Virus record (IMG/VR): IMGVR_UViG_3300003316_000080
Span: 3,483-67,482 of that record
Reading direction: 5' to 3' (one strand)
Origin: a virus
Length of the DNA stretch: 64,000 nucleotides
Positions 55,746-61,347 of this stretch are shown here, one piece after another (positions within the stretch are counted from its first letter, which is position 1; each line of letters starts with the position of its first letter). Both the position numbers and the translations under genes were made by a program. The notes under the pieces were generated by a model that saw only the letters and a program-made list of their open reading frames with translations, made no database searches and had not been told where the DNA came from.

Positions 55746-55782
55746 ACTTCTTACTGGGCCGCTGAAGTGGCGGCCTTTACAC
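55740..55782 (+). terminator. palindromic motif plus terminator hairpin after late operon
   Basis: CAGTAAACTTCTTACTG overlapping stop codon, then GGCCGC...GCGGCC hairpin and TTTACAC. Confidence 0.45.
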
Positions 55783-55793
55783 AAAGGGCGGAC

Positions 55794-56153
55794 ATGAGCC
55801 ATAACAGCTTGGAGGAGCCTTTCCGTTTGGGCAATGTGCCTGACGGACTGGCTTCTGGGGAGGCCAAGATCCTTGCGCAGATGATCATTGCCGTTGATCG
55901 TCGGTGCGAGCAGACGCACGAGGATCTGCCCGACATGATCTCAACCGCAGTGGCACGGCACCTGGAGGAGCGTGCATTGACGCCGGAGCAGCGGCAGTTC
56001 CTGCTGATGCTGATCAAGCGTGAAGAGCGACGCGATGCCCTGCGCAAGGCAGTGATCGAAAAGACGGTGACGGGTCTAATGTGGTCCCTCGTCGTGGCTG
56101 CAGGCGTCATCCTGCGGGAGTGGTTTCAATCTCACATGGGGAAGACGCCGTGA
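55794..56153 (+). CDS. putative holin
   Basis: Small protein with C-terminal TM helix, directly upstream of lysozyme. Confidence 0.4.
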   Translation: MSHNSLEEPFRLGNVPDGLASGEAKILAQMIIAVDRRCEQTHEDLPDMISTAVARHLEERALTPEQRQFLLMLIKREERRDALRKAVIEKTVTGLMWSLVVAAGVILREWFQSHMGKTP

Positions 56154-56938
56154 GCAAACTCGACGATGCCATCGCGCGACTGAATGCGCGGAACTTCAAC
56201 TGGCCCATTCCCTGGGAGGTCGTCGAGACGATGGCCCGCAAGGAGAACTGCTTTCTGGTCGCGTATCTGTGCCCTGCCGGCGTGTGGACGTGCGGCTGGG
56301 GCGAGACAGAAGGTGTGACGGCTTCGACGCGCTGGACGGCTGATCAAGCTGACCAGCGCTTCTTCGATTCCGTCAGCAAGTTCGCGGCCAAGGTGGAAGC
56401 GCTGTGTGCCGACGCACCTACCACACCGAACCAGCTGGGCGCCATGACCTCACTAGCGTACAACATTGGACTGGCCGGCTTCAGCACCTCGTCTGTGCTG
56501 AAGGCCCACAAGCGTGGAGAGAGTGCTGCTGCGGCCCGCGCCTTCTCCCTGTGGAACAAGATGCGTGTGGGCGGCAAGGGTCCGCTGGTGGAAGCTCGGG
56601 GCCTGACGGCCCGGCGCGCCATGGAAGCGGCGTTGTACCTCAAGCCCGAAGATGAAGCACCGGCCGAACTGACCAGTCAAGCCGTTGCTGACGAGAGCAA
56701 GCTGACAGCCTCGCCGATCAGCCAAGCCGGTGCTGCCACGGCGGCCACAGGTGTCGCGGCGACGCTGGCCTCCGTGAACGATCAGGCATCGACGGTGCAG
56801 ACGCTGACGTCGACGGTTGCCGGTATCGCGACGTCGATCGGTGTCCAGCCTGGGGTGCTGCTGGGCGCGGTGCTGGTGGGTGCCGGCGCTGTCACGTTGT
56901 ACTGGCGCTACCAGCAGCGCAAGGGTGGCTGGGCGTGA
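56150..56938 (+). CDS. endolysin, lysozyme-like with C-terminal membrane anchor
   Basis: GTGA overlap; GVWTCGWGETEGVT lysozyme catalytic motif; C-terminal hydrophobic helix. Confidence 0.7.
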   Translation: MSKLDDAIARLNARNFNWPIPWEVVETMARKENCFLVAYLCPAGVWTCGWGETEGVTASTRWTADQADQRFFDSVSKFAAKVEALCADAPTTPNQLGAMTSLAYNIGLAGFSTSSVLKAHKRGESAAAARAFSLWNKMRVGGKGPLVEARGLTARRAMEAALYLKPEDEAPAELTSQAVADESKLTASPISQAGAATAATGVAATLASVNDQASTVQTLTSTVAGIATSIGVQPGVLLGAVLVGAGAVTLYWRYQQRKGGWA

Positions 56939-57450
56939 TCTCAGCGCTTCTTTGGCTTGGCGGCCGTGCACTGAAGGTGTTGGGAAGCATCCCTGTGTGG
57001 GCGTACGCTGCGGCGGCACTCTTTGCCTGGGGTGCTTACGGCCACCACAAGGCTACGAGCGCCAAGCTGGAGGCCGTTCAGCAGGAAGCGCGGGCCGAAG
57101 CCAAGTTGCGTGAGCAGCAGGAGAGCAACAGAAATGACGAGTGGACACGGAACGAATCGAATCGACTCATCGCTGCCAGTCTGGCAAAAGCAAGGGAGCA
57201 TAGTCGGGCTGTTGAGCGTGATGCTGCTGGCCGGATGCGGGCACTTGCCGCAGCCTGGGCAGCAAGTGCAGCCAGTGCGGGTGCCGCCTCCTGCGCCGCA
57301 GCTGATGGAACCCCCGCCGTCGCAGTCCTTCGTGACGACGTTAGAGAAGTGCTTGTCAGCAACGCGGCCGTCGCGGACGGATTGCGAGATCAAGTGAAGG
57401 GTCTGCAGGACTACGTCACCAACGTATGCCGGCCCGCCAGCGCTCCTTAG
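56935..57450 (+). CDS. i-spanin (Rz-like)
   Basis: N-terminal TM, Ala/Glu/Arg-rich coiled coil; after endolysin. Confidence 0.55.
   Translation: MISALLWLGGRALKVLGSIPVWAYAAAALFAWGAYGHHKATSAKLEAVQQEARAEAKLREQQESNRNDEWTRNESNRLIAASLAKAREHSRAVERDAAGRMRALAAAWAASAASAGAASCAAADGTPAVAVLRDDVREVLVSNAAVADGLRDQVKGLQDYVTNVCRPASAP
57134..57397 (+). CDS. o-spanin (Rz1-like lipoprotein) embedded in i-spanin gene, +1 frame
   Basis: Lipobox LLAGC after hydrophobic segment; Pro-rich mature region; entirely within 56935..57450. Confidence 0.45.
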   Translation: MTSGHGTNRIDSSLPVWQKQGSIVGLLSVMLLAGCGHLPQPGQQVQPVRVPPPAPQLMEPPPSQSFVTTLEKCLSATRPSRTDCEIK

Positions 57451-58061
57451 TACCAGCCCTCCAGGCCGAGTCGAGTTCGCTGCTCACTCGGTAGACGCGC
57501 CTGCCCATCGGTGTAGTCGCGCAGCAGCTCCCGGGCCCGCGACAGATCGACCAGATCCTTTTCCGTGCTCAGGATCTCAGTCTGCTTGCCTTCAATCTTC
57601 TGTTGTATCAGGCCGCCGATCACGTTCTCGCCTGTCTCCTTGAGAAACCGCACAGACGACGCCTTGCGTGTCAGAAACGCGAGATCTTGTTGCAGATGCC
57701 TGATGGCTCGCTGGACCTGCGTGATGCGGTCAGCGATCACGATGTCCGTTGACTCGATCACGTCCATCAGGCCGGGCGCGTTCATGTTGGCCGTCAGCAC
57801 AGCACTGACAGCGTTCAGCATCACCTCGCGAGCATCAGTGTCCTTGTCGACCTGCTCGATGCGCTTTTCTTCATCCCATAGTCGGCGCTTCTCCGCGTCG
57901 AGCAGGATGCGCGCTGCCTCGTTGATCTGAACCATCACGGCCGGGTCGCCGCCGCGATCCGGGTGATTGTCCCAAGCGAACTTGCGCCGGGCCTTCTTGA
58001 TGTCGTCCAGGCTGCAATTCTTGTCGAGTTGCAGGATGCGATAAGGGTCGAAGTTGTCCAT
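57447..58061 (-). CDS. J-domain (DnaJ-like) protein
   Basis: DPYRILQL...ARRKFAWDNHPDRGGD with HPD tripeptide. Confidence 0.75.
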   Translation of the reverse strand: MDNFDPYRILQLDKNCSLDDIKKARRKFAWDNHPDRGGDPAVMVQINEAARILLDAEKRRLWDEEKRIEQVDKDTDAREVMLNAVSAVLTANMNAPGLMDVIESTDIVIADRITQVQRAIRHLQQDLAFLTRKASSVRFLKETGENVIGGLIQQKIEGKQTEILSTEKDLVDLSRARELLRDYTDGQARLPSEQRTRLGLEGWY

Positions 58062-58063
58062 GT

Positions 58064-58480
58064 TCAGCTTCCGTAGTTCTTGATCAGATAGTCACGCAGC
58101 GCTTCATAGCCGGCCATCCACTGGCCGTCCGCGCATGCATCCCGATTGCTCTTCAGGAATTCTTGTGCCGTGGGGATGTGTGCTGGGATCGTCATGGTGC
58201 GCGGCATGTTCTGGGAATAGCCCGTGCCGGACACAGACCCTAGGCCAACTACGGCCTTGCGCATAGGCACGCCCTTGGAGTCTTTGCTGGAGGACCCGTC
58301 TTCGATCATCCAGTGTCCCGTTGCTTTGGGCACGTTGTCGCGGGCCCATTTCCAGCCGTTAAGCCAGGATTGGCGTTGCCCGTCAAAGAAACGATCAAAT
58401 CTTGACGGTGGTGCCTCATGAATGCCCTTGCCAGCCCGATAGGCGTCCACGCCCTGCTGCCACAAACTGATGCTGTTCAT
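58064..58480 (-). CDS. hypothetical protein (paralog pair, long member)
   Basis: Shares WQ.G.DA.R.G.G..AP...W.NGW.WA N-terminal pattern with 58477..58677. Confidence 0.5.
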   Translation of the reverse strand: MNSISLWQQGVDAYRAGKGIHEAPPSRFDRFFDGQRQSWLNGWKWARDNVPKATGHWMIEDGSSSKDSKGVPMRKAVVGLGSVSGTGYSQNMPRTMTIPAHIPTAQEFLKSNRDACADGQWMAGYEALRDYLIKNYGS

Positions 58481-58677
58481 GTCTCTTCCCTCAGTTGCCG
58501 CCGCTCACGCAGTTGATGCCGGCGCTTGCGTGCTTGTTGTGATTCCGCCCACAGCCAGCCGTTGGTCCACGACCAGCTAGGTCGTCCGTCTTGCTCCCGT
58601 GGGGCATCACCACGCCCTTCCCCACGCCGGAAGGCATCACAGCCCTCCTGCCAACGAGAGACGAAACGATTCACCAT
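58477..58677 (-). CDS. hypothetical protein (paralog pair, short member)
   Basis: ATGA overlap; paralogous N-terminal motif. Confidence 0.45.
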   Translation of the reverse strand: MVNRFVSRWQEGCDAFRRGEGRGDAPREQDGRPSWSWTNGWLWAESQQARKRRHQLRERRQLREET

Positions 58678-59141
58678 GACTTCGGCGGCGGGATAGGGGT
58701 GTCGTCGTCCAAGGGCACAAAGAACCTGACCGCCGCTGGATTCGTTGCTTTGTGGAAAGCTGCTGACATTTCTTTCTGAAGTTGATGCTCGAAGTTCTTG
58801 ACCTCGTCATTCGCTTCCCGCGCCACGCTCTCAGGATCGAGCAGCATGCGAAGTTGTTGGTAGTGGCTGGAGTGGCGGATCACAGACGAGTCGTACATCA
58901 GGTCACGGGCACGGTTCAGGCGCGCTTGCAGTTCCACGTTGGCGTGGCGCAGCTTGCCTGATTCATGTGCTTCCGCCAGCCGCAGAGAGCGGCACTCAGC
59001 GTGGTGCGTGCGCTCCGTGTCCAGATCCGCCTGCACGATCGCGACTTGATCCTTCGCACACATCCAGCCTATGAACAGACCCACGATTGCCCCGAAAAGC
59101 ATGAGGGTCACCATCGCTCCACCGATCATCCAGTCCGACAT
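58671..59141 (-). CDS. membrane-anchored coiled-coil protein
   Basis: GGAGCAA RBS; N-terminal TM IGGAMVTLMLFGAIVGLFIGWM then helical region. Confidence 0.5.
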   Translation of the reverse strand: MSDWMIGGAMVTLMLFGAIVGLFIGWMCAKDQVAIVQADLDTERTHHAECRSLRLAEAHESGKLRHANVELQARLNRARDLMYDSSVIRHSSHYQQLRMLLDPESVAREANDEVKNFEHQLQKEMSAAFHKATNPAAVRFFVPLDDDTPIPPPKSW

Positions 59142-59169
59142 GTTGTTGCTCCAATGAGAAAGGGTGCAG

Positions 59170-59217
59170 AGATTATATACAAACCTCTGCACCCTCTACA
59201 AGAAACTTTTTACTGGT
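59170..59217 (-). promoter_or_regulatory. conserved leftward promoter element (copy 2 of 3)
   Basis: Minus strand: CAGTAAAAAGTTTCT, then TTGTAG-N18-TATAAT; overlaps the stop of 59217..59666. Confidence 0.5.
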
Positions 59218-59666
59218 CAGCGCAGGAACAGCACATCTCGTAGATACCTCATGACGTGTTCCTGTATCACATCGTTGTAGCAGTCCAGCACCACGTGTGA
59301 AAAGCGCAGGCCACGCAGCATGGCGAGATCTTCCAGGCGATCGAAGGCGAAGGCCATCATGACGTTGGTCAGGTCGCTCTTCCGAGTCACGATGATCGGG
59401 TTGCTGTTGCGGTTGAAGCTAAAGCCCTCCCCGGCCAGTAGTCCCGTCGCGACCATACGACGCAGGTGCTGCTTGCCTTGGATCAGGAGCAGCATTTGCT
59501 CAGGCTCCGCGTGCCTCTTGGTCTGTTGCTCCAGAGCCTTCGCCGCCCTTTCCAGCGCCTGGGCGGCTGCTTCCTTGTTGCCGACGGCGAGGTCATCGGA
59601 AAGGATGCCGACGGCCAGTGCTCGAACGAGTTCCGCGTCGGTCACTTGGTTCTTCGCTTCAGTCAT
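59217..59666 (-). CDS. hypothetical protein
   Basis: Leftward gene. Confidence 0.5.
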   Translation of the reverse strand: MTEAKNQVTDAELVRALAVGILSDDLAVGNKEAAAQALERAAKALEQQTKRHAEPEQMLLLIQGKQHLRRMVATGLLAGEGFSFNRNSNPIIVTRKSDLTNVMMAFAFDRLEDLAMLRGLRFSHVVLDCYNDVIQEHVMRYLRDVLFLR

Positions 59667-59893
59667 GTCTTGATCTCCATATGATGCAGTTGGTTGTTGA
59701 TGTCCTGAAGCTCTTGCTTGATGCGAGCGATCTTCTCTCTGGTGCGCGTGGCTTCATCAGTAGACCACCCGAGGGTGCGCATGCGATCACACGCCTTCTG
59801 CAGGGCCTGGAGATCCAAGGCCCGGTGAATGTCCGATCGGATGGACGCGTGGCGCTGTAGTTCAAGCGCACTCAGTTGCTGGATCTTGCTCAT
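59663..59893 (-). CDS. hypothetical protein
   Basis: GGAAGGAAA RBS; ATGA overlap downstream. Confidence 0.45.
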   Translation of the reverse strand: MSKIQQLSALELQRHASIRSDIHRALDLQALQKACDRMRTLGWSTDEATRTREKIARIKQELQDINNQLHHMEIKT

Positions 59894-60011
59894 TGCTTTC
59901 CTTCCGATTTGATGATGACCCACAGCACAACGATGCTGCCCAACAGAATCACCCACGACATATAGCTCTCCAGGCGTATGCGAAAGGAGGCGCACAGACC
60001 TCCTTGATGCA

Positions 60012-60812
60012 TCAGCCCATGAACGGCTCCGGCTGCGACATCACCTCCCGATGACGACGCACGTGCTCTTCCAGGACCGCCAGCATGTTGGGAGCGATGT
60101 AGTTCACACCCTTGATCCACTTGCCGTCAGGTGTCTTGTCGATCTTGCCGGTCGCCGGGTTCGCCTTGGAGGCGTTTCCGCGATTGGCTTCGACGAAGGC
60201 TTCGCGCCCAGGCACACCGGCCGCGAGAGAGAAGCCAGCTGTGACCACGGCAACGTCAGCGGCGCCGTCGATGATCTCTTTGAACATGGACAGAGGCGGG
60301 ACCGTACTCCAATGGTCGGACACGCTTTCCAGCAGTTTGCGGATCTTCTTGGATTGATAGCCCATGTTCGATCGAACTTGCTCAATCGAGATCACTGCAT
60401 CTCGCAGGGCCGGTGCTTCGTTTCCACACCTCGACGCCAGGATTGCCACCAGCGCTTCACCCAGTTCACTGGCTTCTTCCAGGATCAGTGCGTAGTACAT
60501 CAGCGCACCCTTGTTGATCTCCGGCAGGTACGGCAGCTTCTGATCGGACGCAGCCATCAGGTGGCGCTGCAGAGCCCAGATGTCGACGCAGCCCAGCTTG
60601 TCGGCCGCCTTGCGCTCTTCCGGCTGCATAGTCTTCTTGGCTTCGTGCCACCAGTAGGCCAGCAGCGCCGTTGCGAACACACTCGCAATCAGAAGCACGG
60701 TCAATTCCGTGTTCCAGCCGTTGGCGTAGGCAGCGTCTAGTCCACGCACGATCTGCGTGACGCTGAACACGATGAGGACCAAGAACAGGTCCGCGAGGTT
60801 GAATCGTTTCAT
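60012..60812 (-). CDS. membrane-anchored protein, possible MazG-like NTP pyrophosphohydrolase domain
   Basis: GGAG RBS; two N-terminal TM helices; YYALILEEASELGEALVAI weakly MazG-like. Confidence 0.4.
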   Translation of the reverse strand: MKRFNLADLFLVLIVFSVTQIVRGLDAAYANGWNTELTVLLIASVFATALLAYWWHEAKKTMQPEERKAADKLGCVDIWALQRHLMAASDQKLPYLPEINKGALMYYALILEEASELGEALVAILASRCGNEAPALRDAVISIEQVRSNMGYQSKKIRKLLESVSDHWSTVPPLSMFKEIIDGAADVAVVTAGFSLAAGVPGREAFVEANRGNASKANPATGKIDKTPDGKWIKGVNYIAPNMLAVLEEHVRRHREVMSQPEPFMG

Positions 60813-60841
60813 GTTTTCTCCAGTGTGGTTCGTGTGGTGGC

Positions 60842-60958
60842 TCAGGTCGGCTGCGTGTGCTTGTACAGCGTCAGTCCGAAGACCTTGACGCGAGTCACGA
60901 GCAGATTCATGTGTGTGGCCGTTGCCGTGCGCTCGTAGGTGGTGACGACGTGGATCAT
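60842..60958 (-). CDS. hypothetical small protein (38 aa)
   Basis: GGAG RBS then ATG. Confidence 0.25.
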   Translation of the reverse strand: MIHVVTTYERTATATHMNLLVTRVKVFGLTLYKHTQPT

Positions 60959-60999
60959 GGAAAACTCCAAAGTGGTTGGGGTGGCGGGAAGATATACAG

Positions 61000-61347
61000 T
61001 CAGCGACGACCAAACGGATTGCGCTCGCGCTTCCACTGGGCCTTCTGTTTGCGCGGCTTGGCAGGTCCGTGGTTGTCCAGTTCTTCCGTATAACCTACGG
61101 ACACAGGCATGGTTTCCATTTGCGCCAGCAGGTGTCTCTCTATGTCGGAATAGTCCACCTCCCCCAATTGAGTTCGCTGCTGTTCACGCGAGGACTCTTG
61201 CCGGCTGCGCATGATCGCGTCCAGAGTGGTGACGACCCGTCCTGTGACCGTCCTCACTACTAGTGTGATTGCTTTTCCTGTTGGAGGCGGTATGTCTCGC
61301 CCAAGGCCAACCGGCGCGTTTCGGCCCTTGTCGTCTTCAGTGTTCAT
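61000..61347 (-). CDS. hypothetical protein
   Basis: Leftward operon member. Confidence 0.4.
   Translation of the reverse strand: MNTEDDKGRNAPVGLGRDIPPPTGKAITLVVRTVTGRVVTTLDAIMRSRQESSREQQRTQLGEVDYSDIERHLLAQMETMPVSVGYTEELDNHGPAKPRKQKAQWKRERNPFGRR

Follow-up and report, generated by a model that had tools for sequence, protein, structure and literature searches.

The window, i.e., the whole stretch of 64,000 nucleotides analysed here from an IMG/VR virus record, carries on its minus strand a compact unit of four genes, transcribed in the following order: (i) a gene for a membrane/coiled-coil protein of 156 aa (58671-59141), (ii) a gene for a small protein of 66 aa (58477-58677), (iii) a gene for its longer paralog of 138 aa (58064-58480), and (iv) as last gene of the unit, the one encoding a J-domain protein of 204 aa (57447-58061). 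The short paralog gene shares 7 nt with the membrane protein gene upstream and 4 nt (ATGA) with the long paralog gene downstream, while the latter is separated from the J gene by a gap of 2 nt. The three ORFs at 57447-58061, 58064-58480 and 58477-58677 agree exactly in coordinates and shared strand with the initial annotation. However, the paralogs precede the J gene in transcription rather than follow it, and the membrane/coiled-coil protein, described there as downstream, is actually encoded by the first gene of the unit. At its distal end, the stop codon of the J gene overlaps that of a convergent spanin-like gene (57447-57450). The cluster sits in a variable accessory region adjoining the lysis cassette.

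The identical four-gene order is found in only three phages, i.e., the window phage and two other metagenomic phages (L001 and L006). Comparison of the DNA from 57000 to 61000 with 50,697 phage records gave no match, and neither did a tblastn search of the same records with the 138-aa protein. The closest isolate, as judged by the major capsid protein (63 % identity), is Edwardsiella phage vB_EpM_ZHS (ZHS). In the best explanation of the data, the source is a myovirus of ~67 kb and the four genes would represent the distal end of its early/accessory gene arm.

The unit is preceded by a promoter-like element read from the sequence (59161-59215, minus strand). It comprises an upstream 15-mer CAGTAAAAAGTTTCT (59215-59201), a -35-like TTGTAG (59201-59196) and, after a spacer of 18 nt, a -10 hexamer TATAAT (59177-59172), the latter being flanked by an 11-bp inverted repeat (AGGGTGCAGAG at 59195-59185 and CTCTGCACCCT at 59171-59161). 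Further copies of the composite motif lie on the minus strand at 62212-62158 and 25355-25298, and matches to the 15-mer number 10 as compared to 0.03 expected. The element is kept in L001; in L006, the two repeat arms are changed jointly (GGGGTGAGG/CCTCACCCC) and the loop with the -10 hexamer is retained. A generic promoter scan did not flag the copy at 59161-59215. We infer a sigma-70-like promoter, from which the four packed genes would probably be co-transcribed by host RNA polymerase.

The membrane protein gene was listed as an ORF of 173 aa starting with GTG. Since its relatives in L001 and L006 both begin at the equivalent of M18, with GGAG located 8 nt upstream, M18 is most likely the real start (giving 58671-59141). 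The resulting protein is predicted to have a single hydrophobic helix at its N-terminus (MSDWMIGGAMVTLMLFGAIVGLFIGWM), behind which lies a helical region resembling a coiled coil. It shares 89 % identity with its counterpart in L001 and 57 % with that in L006 (dN/dS 0.2-0.35), and has no match in Pfam, PHROG, NCBIfam or PADLOC.

The two following genes had been regarded as products of a local duplication, based on a shared W-Q-x-G...W-x-N-G-W-x-W-A pattern, and pairwise alignment bears this out: the 138-aa and 66-aa proteins share 40 % identity over 58 aa (BLASTP, E 7e-10), and their Smith-Waterman score of 105 compares to 29 ± 5.5 in shuffled sequences (0 of 5000 shuffles reaching 105). Invariant columns are W7, Q8, G10, D12, A13, R15, G17, G19, A23, P24, W39, N41, G42, W43, W45 and A46. 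In the long paralog, residues 5-50 make up a predicted N-terminal domain of the Rmf/CrpP fold, which a disordered stretch (~56-90) links to a helical hairpin in the C-terminal part (105-136) displaying the motif W/F-x-x-G-Y/W-x-A-L-x-x-Y-L; both structured parts are modelled by AF2 with a pLDDT of 82-94. P0002 (119 aa) and P0005 (112 aa) are orthologous to this protein, with its N-terminal domain being ~98 % identical to that of P0002 and the remainder of the gene unalignable in DNA. The short paralog combines the same predicted domain (~residues 6-46) with a strongly basic tail QQARKRRHQLRERRQLREET (pI 11.9).

Automatic gene callers missed the 66-aa ORF or called another frame. The 66-aa ORF is nevertheless, judging from comparative sequence data, the real frame, since (i) orthologs are present in both relatives (in L006, P0004 of 63 aa, which has the same tail; in L001, an ORF of 65 aa at L001:3808-4002 that had not been called), (ii) codon differences to L001 are 10 synonymous and 3 non-synonymous, (iii) dN/dS versus L006 is 0.35, and (iv) the alternative frame is not conserved in the relatives. 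Replacement of the small paralog by a NinX gene in L001 was also considered and rejected, as the DNA alignment reveals the paralog to be present and the NinX gene to be inserted.

The pattern shared by both paralogs can be assigned to a predicted Rmf/CrpP-fold domain, an affiliation which the initial annotation did not recognise. A profile built from the two window domains retrieved P0007 and P0011 from 1.84 billion proteins, and both of these exceed the cutoff of 28 for the NCBIfam family Rmf_CrpP_fam (31.0 and 29.7, respectively). In searches of the PDB (177,635 sequences), a 10-sequence profile matched RMF chains only (E 1.6e-4 to 1.9e-3), and a profile restricted to the phage clade yielded RMF as the sole two matches (E 0.047 and 0.23). 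Alignment by hhalign of the clade profile with RMF and these intermediates gave 98 % probability and an E-value of 3e-13, a comparison that is partly circular since three of the five target sequences were recruited via their similarity to the clade. The AF2 model of the N-terminal domain displays two helices joined by a loop (pLDDT 82-94), and the RMF core residues G16, G23, P30, W40, G43 and W44 correspond to G10, G17, P24, W39, G42 and W43 in the window domains, all six positions being unchanged throughout the two paralogs and their orthologs.

Direct matches to curated models stay below the cutoffs. NCBIfam NF041886 matches the 138-aa protein at E 9e-4 to 0.012 (15.2 bits for the full protein and 18.8 for the isolated N-terminal domain; cutoff 28) and its orthologs P0002 and P0005 with 17.3 and 24.3, respectively, at the same cutoff, and does not match the short paralogs. 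Scores for Pfam RMF (PF04957; 11.2 bits versus a cutoff of 27.9) and NF011162 (11 versus 40) fall below both cutoffs, the CrpP model NF033696 does not match the window proteins at E ≤ 10, and the 66-aa paralog has no direct match to any curated model including PF04957 and NF011162. A single-sequence phmmer search of the PDB with the N-terminal domain did not find RMF, the sole match being a chance one to Mad3. The paralogs could be imagined as a clade-restricted orphan family whose W/G-rich pattern merely mimics the RMF consensus. This appears improbable, considering that RMF chains are the sole PDB matches of two different profiles, that the intermediate sequences P0007 and P0011 pass the curated cutoff, that hhalign assigns 98 % probability, and that all six core residues are in register within the same predicted helix-loop-helix (PMC8126665).

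The likeness to RMF (PF04957; PDB 2JRM, 4V8G, 6H4N) is that of a small, basic helix-loop-helix of ~45 aa with core residues in register. Measured against the residue roles described for RMF (core; rRNA-contacting R3, K5, R11 and R45; C29; PMC8126665), the window paralogs differ in several respects. The N-terminal basic arm binding 16S rRNA (R3, K5, R11) is absent, the domain being preceded by no more than 4-6 residues and the position of R11 being taken by Ser; Ala is found in place of C29; and R45, which contacts the anti-Shine-Dalgarno sequence, corresponds to Lys in the 138-aa and to Leu in the 66-aa protein. Furthermore, one of the paralogs possesses an extra linker and hairpin, and the genes are phage-encoded and duplicated. 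Since the structural core of RMF is kept but the rRNA-contacting residues are missing, the paralogs should be viewed as relatives by fold and not as RMF orthologs. Among curated families, the long paralog and its orthologs score best against the Rmf/CrpP family (NF041886, NF041887; including CrpP of Pseudomonas integrative conjugative elements, NF033696). Like members of that family, the relatives reside in early or accessory regions of mobile elements; the window proteins differ in that the CPY motif of the loop is replaced by APP or APR. Because this family is without established function, membership explains little. There is no accepted function for proteins of this fold encoded by phages and integrative elements, and the ciprofloxacin-kinase claim for CrpP has reportedly been disputed. 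A literature search on phage-encoded RMF-like or hibernation factors and on CrpP structure or function retrieved nothing relevant.

The paralogs are most likely fast-evolving, independently exchangeable accessory proteins that would bind some macromolecule of the host; by analogy, the most plausible target is RNA or the ribosome. One may further speculate that they act on the host 30S subunit as phage ribosome binders, using the two-helix core together with the basic and hairpin appendages to reprogram or silence translation, and that the J protein recruits DnaK to load, remove or protect them; this must be regarded as a long shot. Window phage genes have Shine-Dalgarno-like sites, which argues against a simple block of the anti-Shine-Dalgarno sequence in the manner of RMF.

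The last gene of the unit encodes, as annotated initially, a DnaJ-like protein with an HPD motif. The J domain (residues 5-65, HPD at 33-35) and, after a helix (75-91), a long hairpin of two antiparallel helices (101-136 and 147-180) are confidently predicted. Pfam PF00226 matches residues 5-63 over the complete profile (positions 1-63 of 63) with an E-value of 3.2e-12 and 46.8 bits (cutoff 27.8), and J domains in the PDB match down to E 3e-9. H33-P34-D35 is present, the basic helix II (K22, K23, R25, R26, K27) and helix III align with those of solved J domains, and the four-helix J fold that characterises J-domain proteins is recovered. Lack of conserved helix II/III residues, which would have spoken against the assignment, can be dismissed. 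PF00226 is the only Pfam domain found; neither PF00684 nor PF01556 matches, and the C-terminus is all-helical. The absence of the class A/B DnaJ domains places the protein in class C. From its sequence and predicted fold, it carries every feature for engaging Hsp70/DnaK, and the gene is under strong purifying selection (dN/dS 0.05-0.07).

More than 100 clusters of 195-225 aa proteins outscore J-domain-only matches, indicating that the window protein belongs to a large family of phage J-domain proteins of ~200 aa. Full-length alignments are obtained with ZHS gp47, Alteromonas phage R7M gp54 and Rhizobium phage RHph_N65 gp037, annotated as 'chaperone protein' and uncharacterised; identity to the window protein is merely 20-30 %, and the window C-terminal region alone matches ZHS gp47 at E 2e-6. 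Pattern-based scans for relatives in IMG/VR, GTDB genomes and JGI metagenome contigs retrieved none. The family genes of these three phages reside in recombination or replication operons, whereas the window gene lies beside the RMF-like genes and the lysis cassette. The ZHS homologue adjoins genes for RecA, RuvC and an exonuclease, that of R7M adjoins genes for RecA, SSB, an exonuclease and a helicase, and a further homologue (L016) ends an AAA_24-DUF669-SNF2 operon.

As expected from established J-domain biochemistry, the J protein should interact with DnaK. Most likely, given the HPD loop and the basic helix II that dock on Hsp70, it binds host DnaK and triggers ATP hydrolysis, which would clamp the chaperone onto any client bound by the antiparallel helical hairpin of the C-terminus. 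Since homologues in other phages are located in RecA/exonuclease/RuvC/helicase operons, our best guess is that the protein remodels phage replication or recombination complexes. This neighbourhood argument for the client is weak, because one homologue (L014) adjoins the large terminase gene and the window J gene itself is not beside replication or recombination genes.

Hijacking of DnaK by a phage has a precedent in Rki (ORF057w) of the T4-like phage RB43 (PMC3486835), and among class C J-domain proteins, which have been counted in 136 phage genomes, only Rki is characterised (PMC13254874). By this model, the window protein would titrate or redirect DnaK, sigma-32 would be stabilised and heat-shock chaperones induced for phage folding, with the RMF-like genes being unrelated neighbours. 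Both proteins are of class C with an N-terminal J domain, an intact HPD and an orphan C-terminal region, fall into the same size class of ~200-240 aa (204 aa versus 237 aa for Rki) and are encoded among small genes without known function; Rki is expressed early (PMC3486835), and the window gene lies behind a sigma-70-like promoter. However, BLASTP finds similarity only around the HPD (22 aa, E 8e-6), so that the window protein is not a member of the Rki family. The C-terminal ~160 aa, the part determining the specificity of J-domain proteins, show no similarity (no match between the C-terminal regions alone), the window C-terminus being a predicted antiparallel helical hairpin. The genomic context also differs, and members of the window family often occur in replication or recombination operons. 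An Rki-like action is a rather unlikely alternative.

The initial annotation had taken the locus as a possible host-chaperone hijacking or exclusion module. Hijacking of the host chaperone is plausible for the J protein alone. A single module would imply that the RMF-like proteins receive DnaK from the J protein or serve it as adaptors, e.g., by pairing of the 138-aa hairpin with the J hairpin, and that the membrane protein localises the complex. The single shared promoter, translational coupling through the tightly packed gene junctions and the kept order would suit such an arrangement, as would the fact that the J protein and the 138-aa protein both end in predicted helical hairpins without other assigned partner; moreover, in RB43 and RB16 Rki is either fused with the gene downstream of it or lies beside that gene (PMC3486835). 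Yet tight coupling and conserved order fit mere co-transcription equally well, and, given the close kinship of the three phages, their shared order may reflect plain inheritance. Compared with L006, the J gene and the lysis genes show 93 % DNA identity, whereas neighbouring genes are ~70 % identical or unalignable, and dS is 0.33 for the J gene but saturated for the 138-aa gene; these values place a recombination breakpoint exactly at the start of the J gene, i.e., between it and the 138-aa gene. A second mosaic breakpoint lies inside the 138-aa gene, and L001 tolerates the NinX gene between the paralogs. Elsewhere, the two gene types do not co-occur: an RMF-like ORF was found at none of eight other J-domain-protein loci and a J-domain gene at none of three other RMF-like loci, nor do the genes preceding the J gene in ZHS and RHph_N65 carry the W-Q-x-G pattern. 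The module claim is thus not supported, an obligate partnership between the paralogs and the J protein is improbable, and a joint function of all four products seems unlikely.

The exclusion part of that proposal, by which membrane protein, small proteins and J protein would together keep out incoming phages or cause abortive infection, fares less well still. It could draw on the single-pass membrane protein and on the position in a variable accessory region by the lysis cassette, where a gene of nin-region type (NinX) is inserted in a relative. Against it, none of the seven cluster proteins matched a defence model of PADLOC-DB 2.0 at E ≤ 0.01, neither an integrase nor a lysogeny context was seen in the vicinity of the cluster, and the J family is spread over many phages in replication-gene contexts. 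We regard exclusion or defence as very improbable.

The explanation preferred overall, with a probability of about 0.5, is a promoter-driven unit in which a J protein would act on DnaK and independent Rmf/CrpP-fold paralogs would serve as accessory proteins. Both J-domain proteins and RMF-like proteins are already known in phages, and the window genes are further members; the finding refines annotation rather than revealing a new mechanism. Class C J-domain proteins of phages are common yet almost unstudied, an effect being known for Rki only, and the frequent location of the present family in recombination or replication operons suggests a testable class of clients for DnaK hijacking besides sigma-32. 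The paralogs, as two diverged copies under purifying selection of which one has a basic tail and the other an extra domain, would offer a convenient test of ribosome binding by this fold outside the true RMF family.

Four tightly packed minus-strand genes adjoin the lysis cassette of the window, in transcription order: (i) a membrane-protein gene (58671-59141), its start most likely M18, as in both relatives and behind GGAG, (ii) a short paralog of 66 aa (58477-58677), (iii) a long paralog of 138 aa (58064-58480), and (iv) a DnaJ-type protein of 204 aa (J protein, 57447-58061). Genes (i) and (ii) overlap by 7 nt, (ii) and (iii) by 4 nt (ATGA), and 2 nt separate (iii) from (iv). ORFs (ii) to (iv) lie exactly where the initial annotation had placed them, all on the minus strand; the membrane protein, described there as downstream, is encoded first and the J protein last. 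Only three genomes in the searched collections carry these genes, i.e., the window and two sister phages represented by a 66-kb (L001) and a 9.8-kb (L006/L007) Logan contig. In all three, the membrane-protein gene is succeeded by those of the short paralog, the long paralog and the J protein, and then by convergent spanin, lysozyme and holin genes. In L001, a NinX gene (PF10765, E 1e-10; L001:4005-4442, L002:464-901) is inserted between the paralogs and flanked by the 7-bp direct repeat ATGAACA, and the junction in the window has this sequence too; presence or absence of NinX looks like gain or loss via microhomology.

The window comprises most of a tailed-phage genome of about 67 kb (longest matching contig 67,482 nt). 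Genes for replication, packaging, head, sheath, baseplate and tail fibres occupy the plus strand up to ~55.7 kb. The lysis cassette, also on the plus strand, consists of a holin-like gene (55767-56153), a lysozyme gene (56081-56938, start at 56081 or 56150; PF00959 in the L001 ortholog) and a spanin-like gene (56935-57450). From 57447 to the window end, every gene is located on the minus strand, converging on this cassette; the arm also encodes a ParB-like protein and a MazG-like nucleotide pyrophosphohydrolase (60012-60812, minus strand; phrog_671, E 1.6e-13), the latter with two hydrophobic helices in its N-terminal region. A MazG-like gene likewise lies near the J-domain-protein gene of Rhizobium phage RHph_N65. 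In the lysozyme-family endolysin, a long Ala/Thr-rich linker is accompanied by a hydrophobic segment at the C-terminus (GVLLGAVLVGAGAVTLYW), a membrane anchor at this rather than the N-terminal end being unusual. The convergent J and spanin-like genes run into each other by 4 nt at their stops (57447-57450), so that the early and late transcription units have no space between them for an intergenic terminator. No DNA-level relative of positions 57000-61000 was found among the 50,697 phage records of INPHARED; judged by major capsid protein (63 % identity), Edwardsiella phage vB_EpM_ZHS is the nearest isolate.

Upstream of the membrane-protein gene, a composite motif (59215-59161, minus strand) combines the 15-mer CAGTAAAAAGTTTCT, a -35-like hexamer, an 18-nt spacer and TATAAT. 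Further minus-strand copies at 62212-62158 and 25355-25298 bring the total to three, the common layout being the 15-mer, ~25 nt and then GTTT(G/A)TATA(T/C)AATCTC. Allowing up to two mismatches, the window contains 10 matches to the 15-mer versus 0.03 expected, those outside the composites lying at 2165, 14995, 27176, 32567, 37326, 38856 and 47149; several plus-strand copies coincide with gene starts or fall into intergenic gaps. The composite may represent a family of promoters or regulator sites belonging to the phage itself. An 11-bp inverted repeat (59195-59185/59171-59161, minus strand) brackets the -10 before the membrane-protein gene. In L006 (~75-110), both arms are altered yet still complementary, and the loop with the -10 is kept; the repeat could act as operator or RNA hairpin. 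Judged by its sequence, this promoter-like element is common to the four genes, and we infer that they form one unit transcribed by host RNA polymerase.

The J domain proposed initially proved genuine: the J protein matches the entire 63-position Pfam DnaJ profile (E 3.2e-12, 46.8 bits versus a cutoff of 27.8) as well as many solved J domains (best E 3e-9), with H33-P34-D35, a basic helix II (KKARRK) and helix III aligned. It is assigned to class C, since G/F region, zinc-finger domain and DnaJ C-terminal domain were all absent in the Pfam search. The AF2 model (47-sequence alignment; pLDDT 91.4, pTM 0.71) predicts a canonical J domain, followed by a helix (75-91) and a long hairpin of two antiparallel helices (101-136 and 147-180), i.e., at the level of sequence and predicted fold, a bona fide J domain with a helical-hairpin C-terminus. 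A 2026 review lists J-domain-protein genes in 137 phage genomes, 136 of which encode class C proteins; nearly all of these are devoid of another known domain, and Rki of phage RB43 alone is characterised (PMC13254874). Homology of the J protein to Rki was ruled out, the likeness being limited to 22 residues around HPD.

Relatives of the J protein are widespread. Its C-terminal region shares homology with gp47 (E 2e-6) of Edwardsiella phage ZHS, and the whole protein is colinear with "chaperone proteins" of three further phages (Alteromonas phage R7M, Rhizobium phage RHph_N65, Tetrasphaera phage TJE1). A profile of these relatives retrieved ~1000 proteins. Clusters of 195-225 aa that outscore J-domain-only matches number more than 100, and many are located on phage-sized contigs. 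The related gene adjoins RecA, RuvC and repair-exonuclease genes in ZHS and those for RecA, SSB, exonuclease and helicase in R7M, and is located near DNA polymerase and the MazG-like gene in RHph_N65. In contig L016 it is the last gene of an AAA_24-DUF669-SNF2 operon converging on tail genes, and in L014, an unrelated 58-kb phage contig, it adjoins the large terminase gene. L014 also harbours an Acb2/Tad1-hairpin gene (anti-CBASS/anti-Thoeris sponge; L014:2758-2955) ~2 kb upstream of the J-gene homologue.

Automatic callers selected another frame over the 66-aa ORF in an identical Logan contig; in two of the three genomes they overlooked the short paralog, annotating either nothing or a 48-aa frame that is not conserved. 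The short paralog is therefore absent from large protein collections (the exact 66-aa protein was not found among 15 billion proteins). Comparative sequence support for the 66-aa frame as the real gene frame is strong: the third phage (L006) encodes a 63-aa ortholog (P0004) sharing even the basic tail RKRHQLRERRQLKE, with dN/dS of 0.35, an uncalled 65-aa ortholog in L001 (L001:3808-4002) differs by 10 synonymous versus 3 non-synonymous codons, and the competing frame shows no conservation.

That the two small proteins are true paralogs, as first suspected, is evident from 40 % identity over 58 residues (BLASTP, E 7e-10) and a Smith-Waterman score of 105, exceeding all 5000 shuffles (mean 29, sd 5.5), a likeness far beyond chance. 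The W-Q-x-G pattern noted earlier corresponds to invariant alignment columns (W7 Q8 G10 D12 A13 R15 G17 G19 A23 P24 W39 N41 G42 W43 W45 A46). Neither paralog has a Pfam or PHROGs match at standard thresholds. At relaxed thresholds, NCBIfam NF041886 ("Rmf/CrpP family") is the best and almost sole curated match of the long paralog, spanning the entire 39-position model below its 28-bit cutoff (full protein 15.2, N-terminal domain 18.8, L001 ortholog P0002 17.3 and L006 ortholog P0005 24.3 bits). When 1.84 billion representatives were screened exhaustively (HMMER), a profile built from both window domains yielded ten proteins at E <= 1e-3, comprising the orthologs and small proteins from early regions of phages or mobile elements. 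Two of these (P0007 and P0011) score above the NF041886 cutoff, and several also match "Rmf_like_phage", "CrpP-related" and RMF (ribosome modulation factor) models. Across the whole PDB, the ten-sequence profile hits RMF only (2jrm_A 1.6e-4, 4v8g 1.2e-3, 6h4n 1.9e-3); with a six-sequence profile of this phage clade alone, RMF provides the only two matches, at borderline E of 0.047 and 0.23. Alignment of the clade profile with RMF fragments and three family members (hhalign, 98 % probability, E 3e-13) is partly circular, since these members had been recruited by similarity to the clade.

All six residues of the RMF structural core (G16, G23, P30, W40, G43, W44; Yoshida et al., PMC8126665) are conserved in the paralog alignment. 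RMF binds the ribosome via an N-terminal arm (R3, K5, R11), and R45 touches the anti-Shine-Dalgarno sequence (PMC8126665); in contrast, the paralogs lack this arm, C29 is replaced by Ala, and R45 by Lys in the 138-aa and Leu in the 66-aa protein. For the 138-aa protein, AF2 confidently predicts a helix-loop-helix N-terminal domain (helices 6-15 and 30-49, pLDDT 82-94) and, beyond a disordered part (56-90), a C-terminal helical hairpin (105-136), the motif of which is common to P0002 and P0005. The long paralog would accordingly consist of domain, linker and hairpin, the short one of the bare domain and a very basic tail (pI 11.9). Sequence and models lead to the conclusion that both are predicted Rmf/CrpP-fold proteins, under purifying selection, and not RMF orthologs.

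The J and lysis genes form a single conserved block with 93 % DNA identity to L006 (J gene: dS 0.28-0.33, dN/dS 0.05-0.07). Similarity to L006 ends 7 nt ahead of the J start codon, and the two paralogs and the membrane-protein gene are ~70 % identical or unalignable (dS saturated, dN/dS 0.25-0.5). A second break, relative to L001, falls inside the 138-aa gene: the DNA of the N-terminal domain is 89 % identical, the linker and C-terminal hairpin region (58321-58055 versus L001:4612-4811) is unalignable, and similarity resumes in the J gene (94.7 %). Therefore, the paralogs reside in a mosaic, fast-changing segment abutting the conserved J-plus-lysis block. The unalignable part keeps W/F-x-x-G-Y/W-x-A-L-x-x-Y-L, a faint echo of the W-x-N-G-W-x-W-A helix of the N-terminal domain.

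Co-transcription and translational coupling could indicate that the J and RMF-like proteins operate as a dedicated machine. However, their genes do not co-occur in the other loci scanned: when every stop-to-stop segment of the window and all fetched loci was searched with the clade profile, RMF-like ORFs were confined to the three sister phages and three unrelated loci, the latter carrying no J-domain gene. None was detected in the eight other J-domain-protein loci (ZHS, N65, R7M, TJE1, L014-L017) or the Rki locus, nor was a third copy elsewhere in the window. Since, moreover, none of seven proteins of the minus-strand arm matches PADLOC defence models and a recombination boundary lies at the J start, such a machine is unlikely. 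Of the host-chaperone hijacking or exclusion module suggested by the initial annotation, the J domain and the duplication hold, the dedicated module and the exclusion function are not supported. The J/RMF-like pairing occurs only within one small clade of phages.

J-domain proteins dock on DnaK via their HPD loop and basic helix II, which triggers ATP hydrolysis, and pick the client by the C-terminal part; DnaK and DnaJ are classically required to free lambda P from DnaB. The J protein would recruit host DnaK, and the neighbourhoods of its homologues together with this classical role suggest a phage replication or recombination assembly as the most likely client. The main alternative is an Rki-like action, resulting in sigma-32 stabilisation. 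The RMF-like proteins would be independent accessory factors and bind a macromolecule of the host, RNA or the ribosome being candidates. A straightforward RMF mechanism is disfavoured by the missing rRNA-contacting residues and by Shine-Dalgarno-like sites in front of the phage's own genes, and it is improbable that the paralogs are phage-encoded ribosome modulators aided by the J protein. The J protein and the paralogs represent newly found members of kinds already catalogued but poorly understood.
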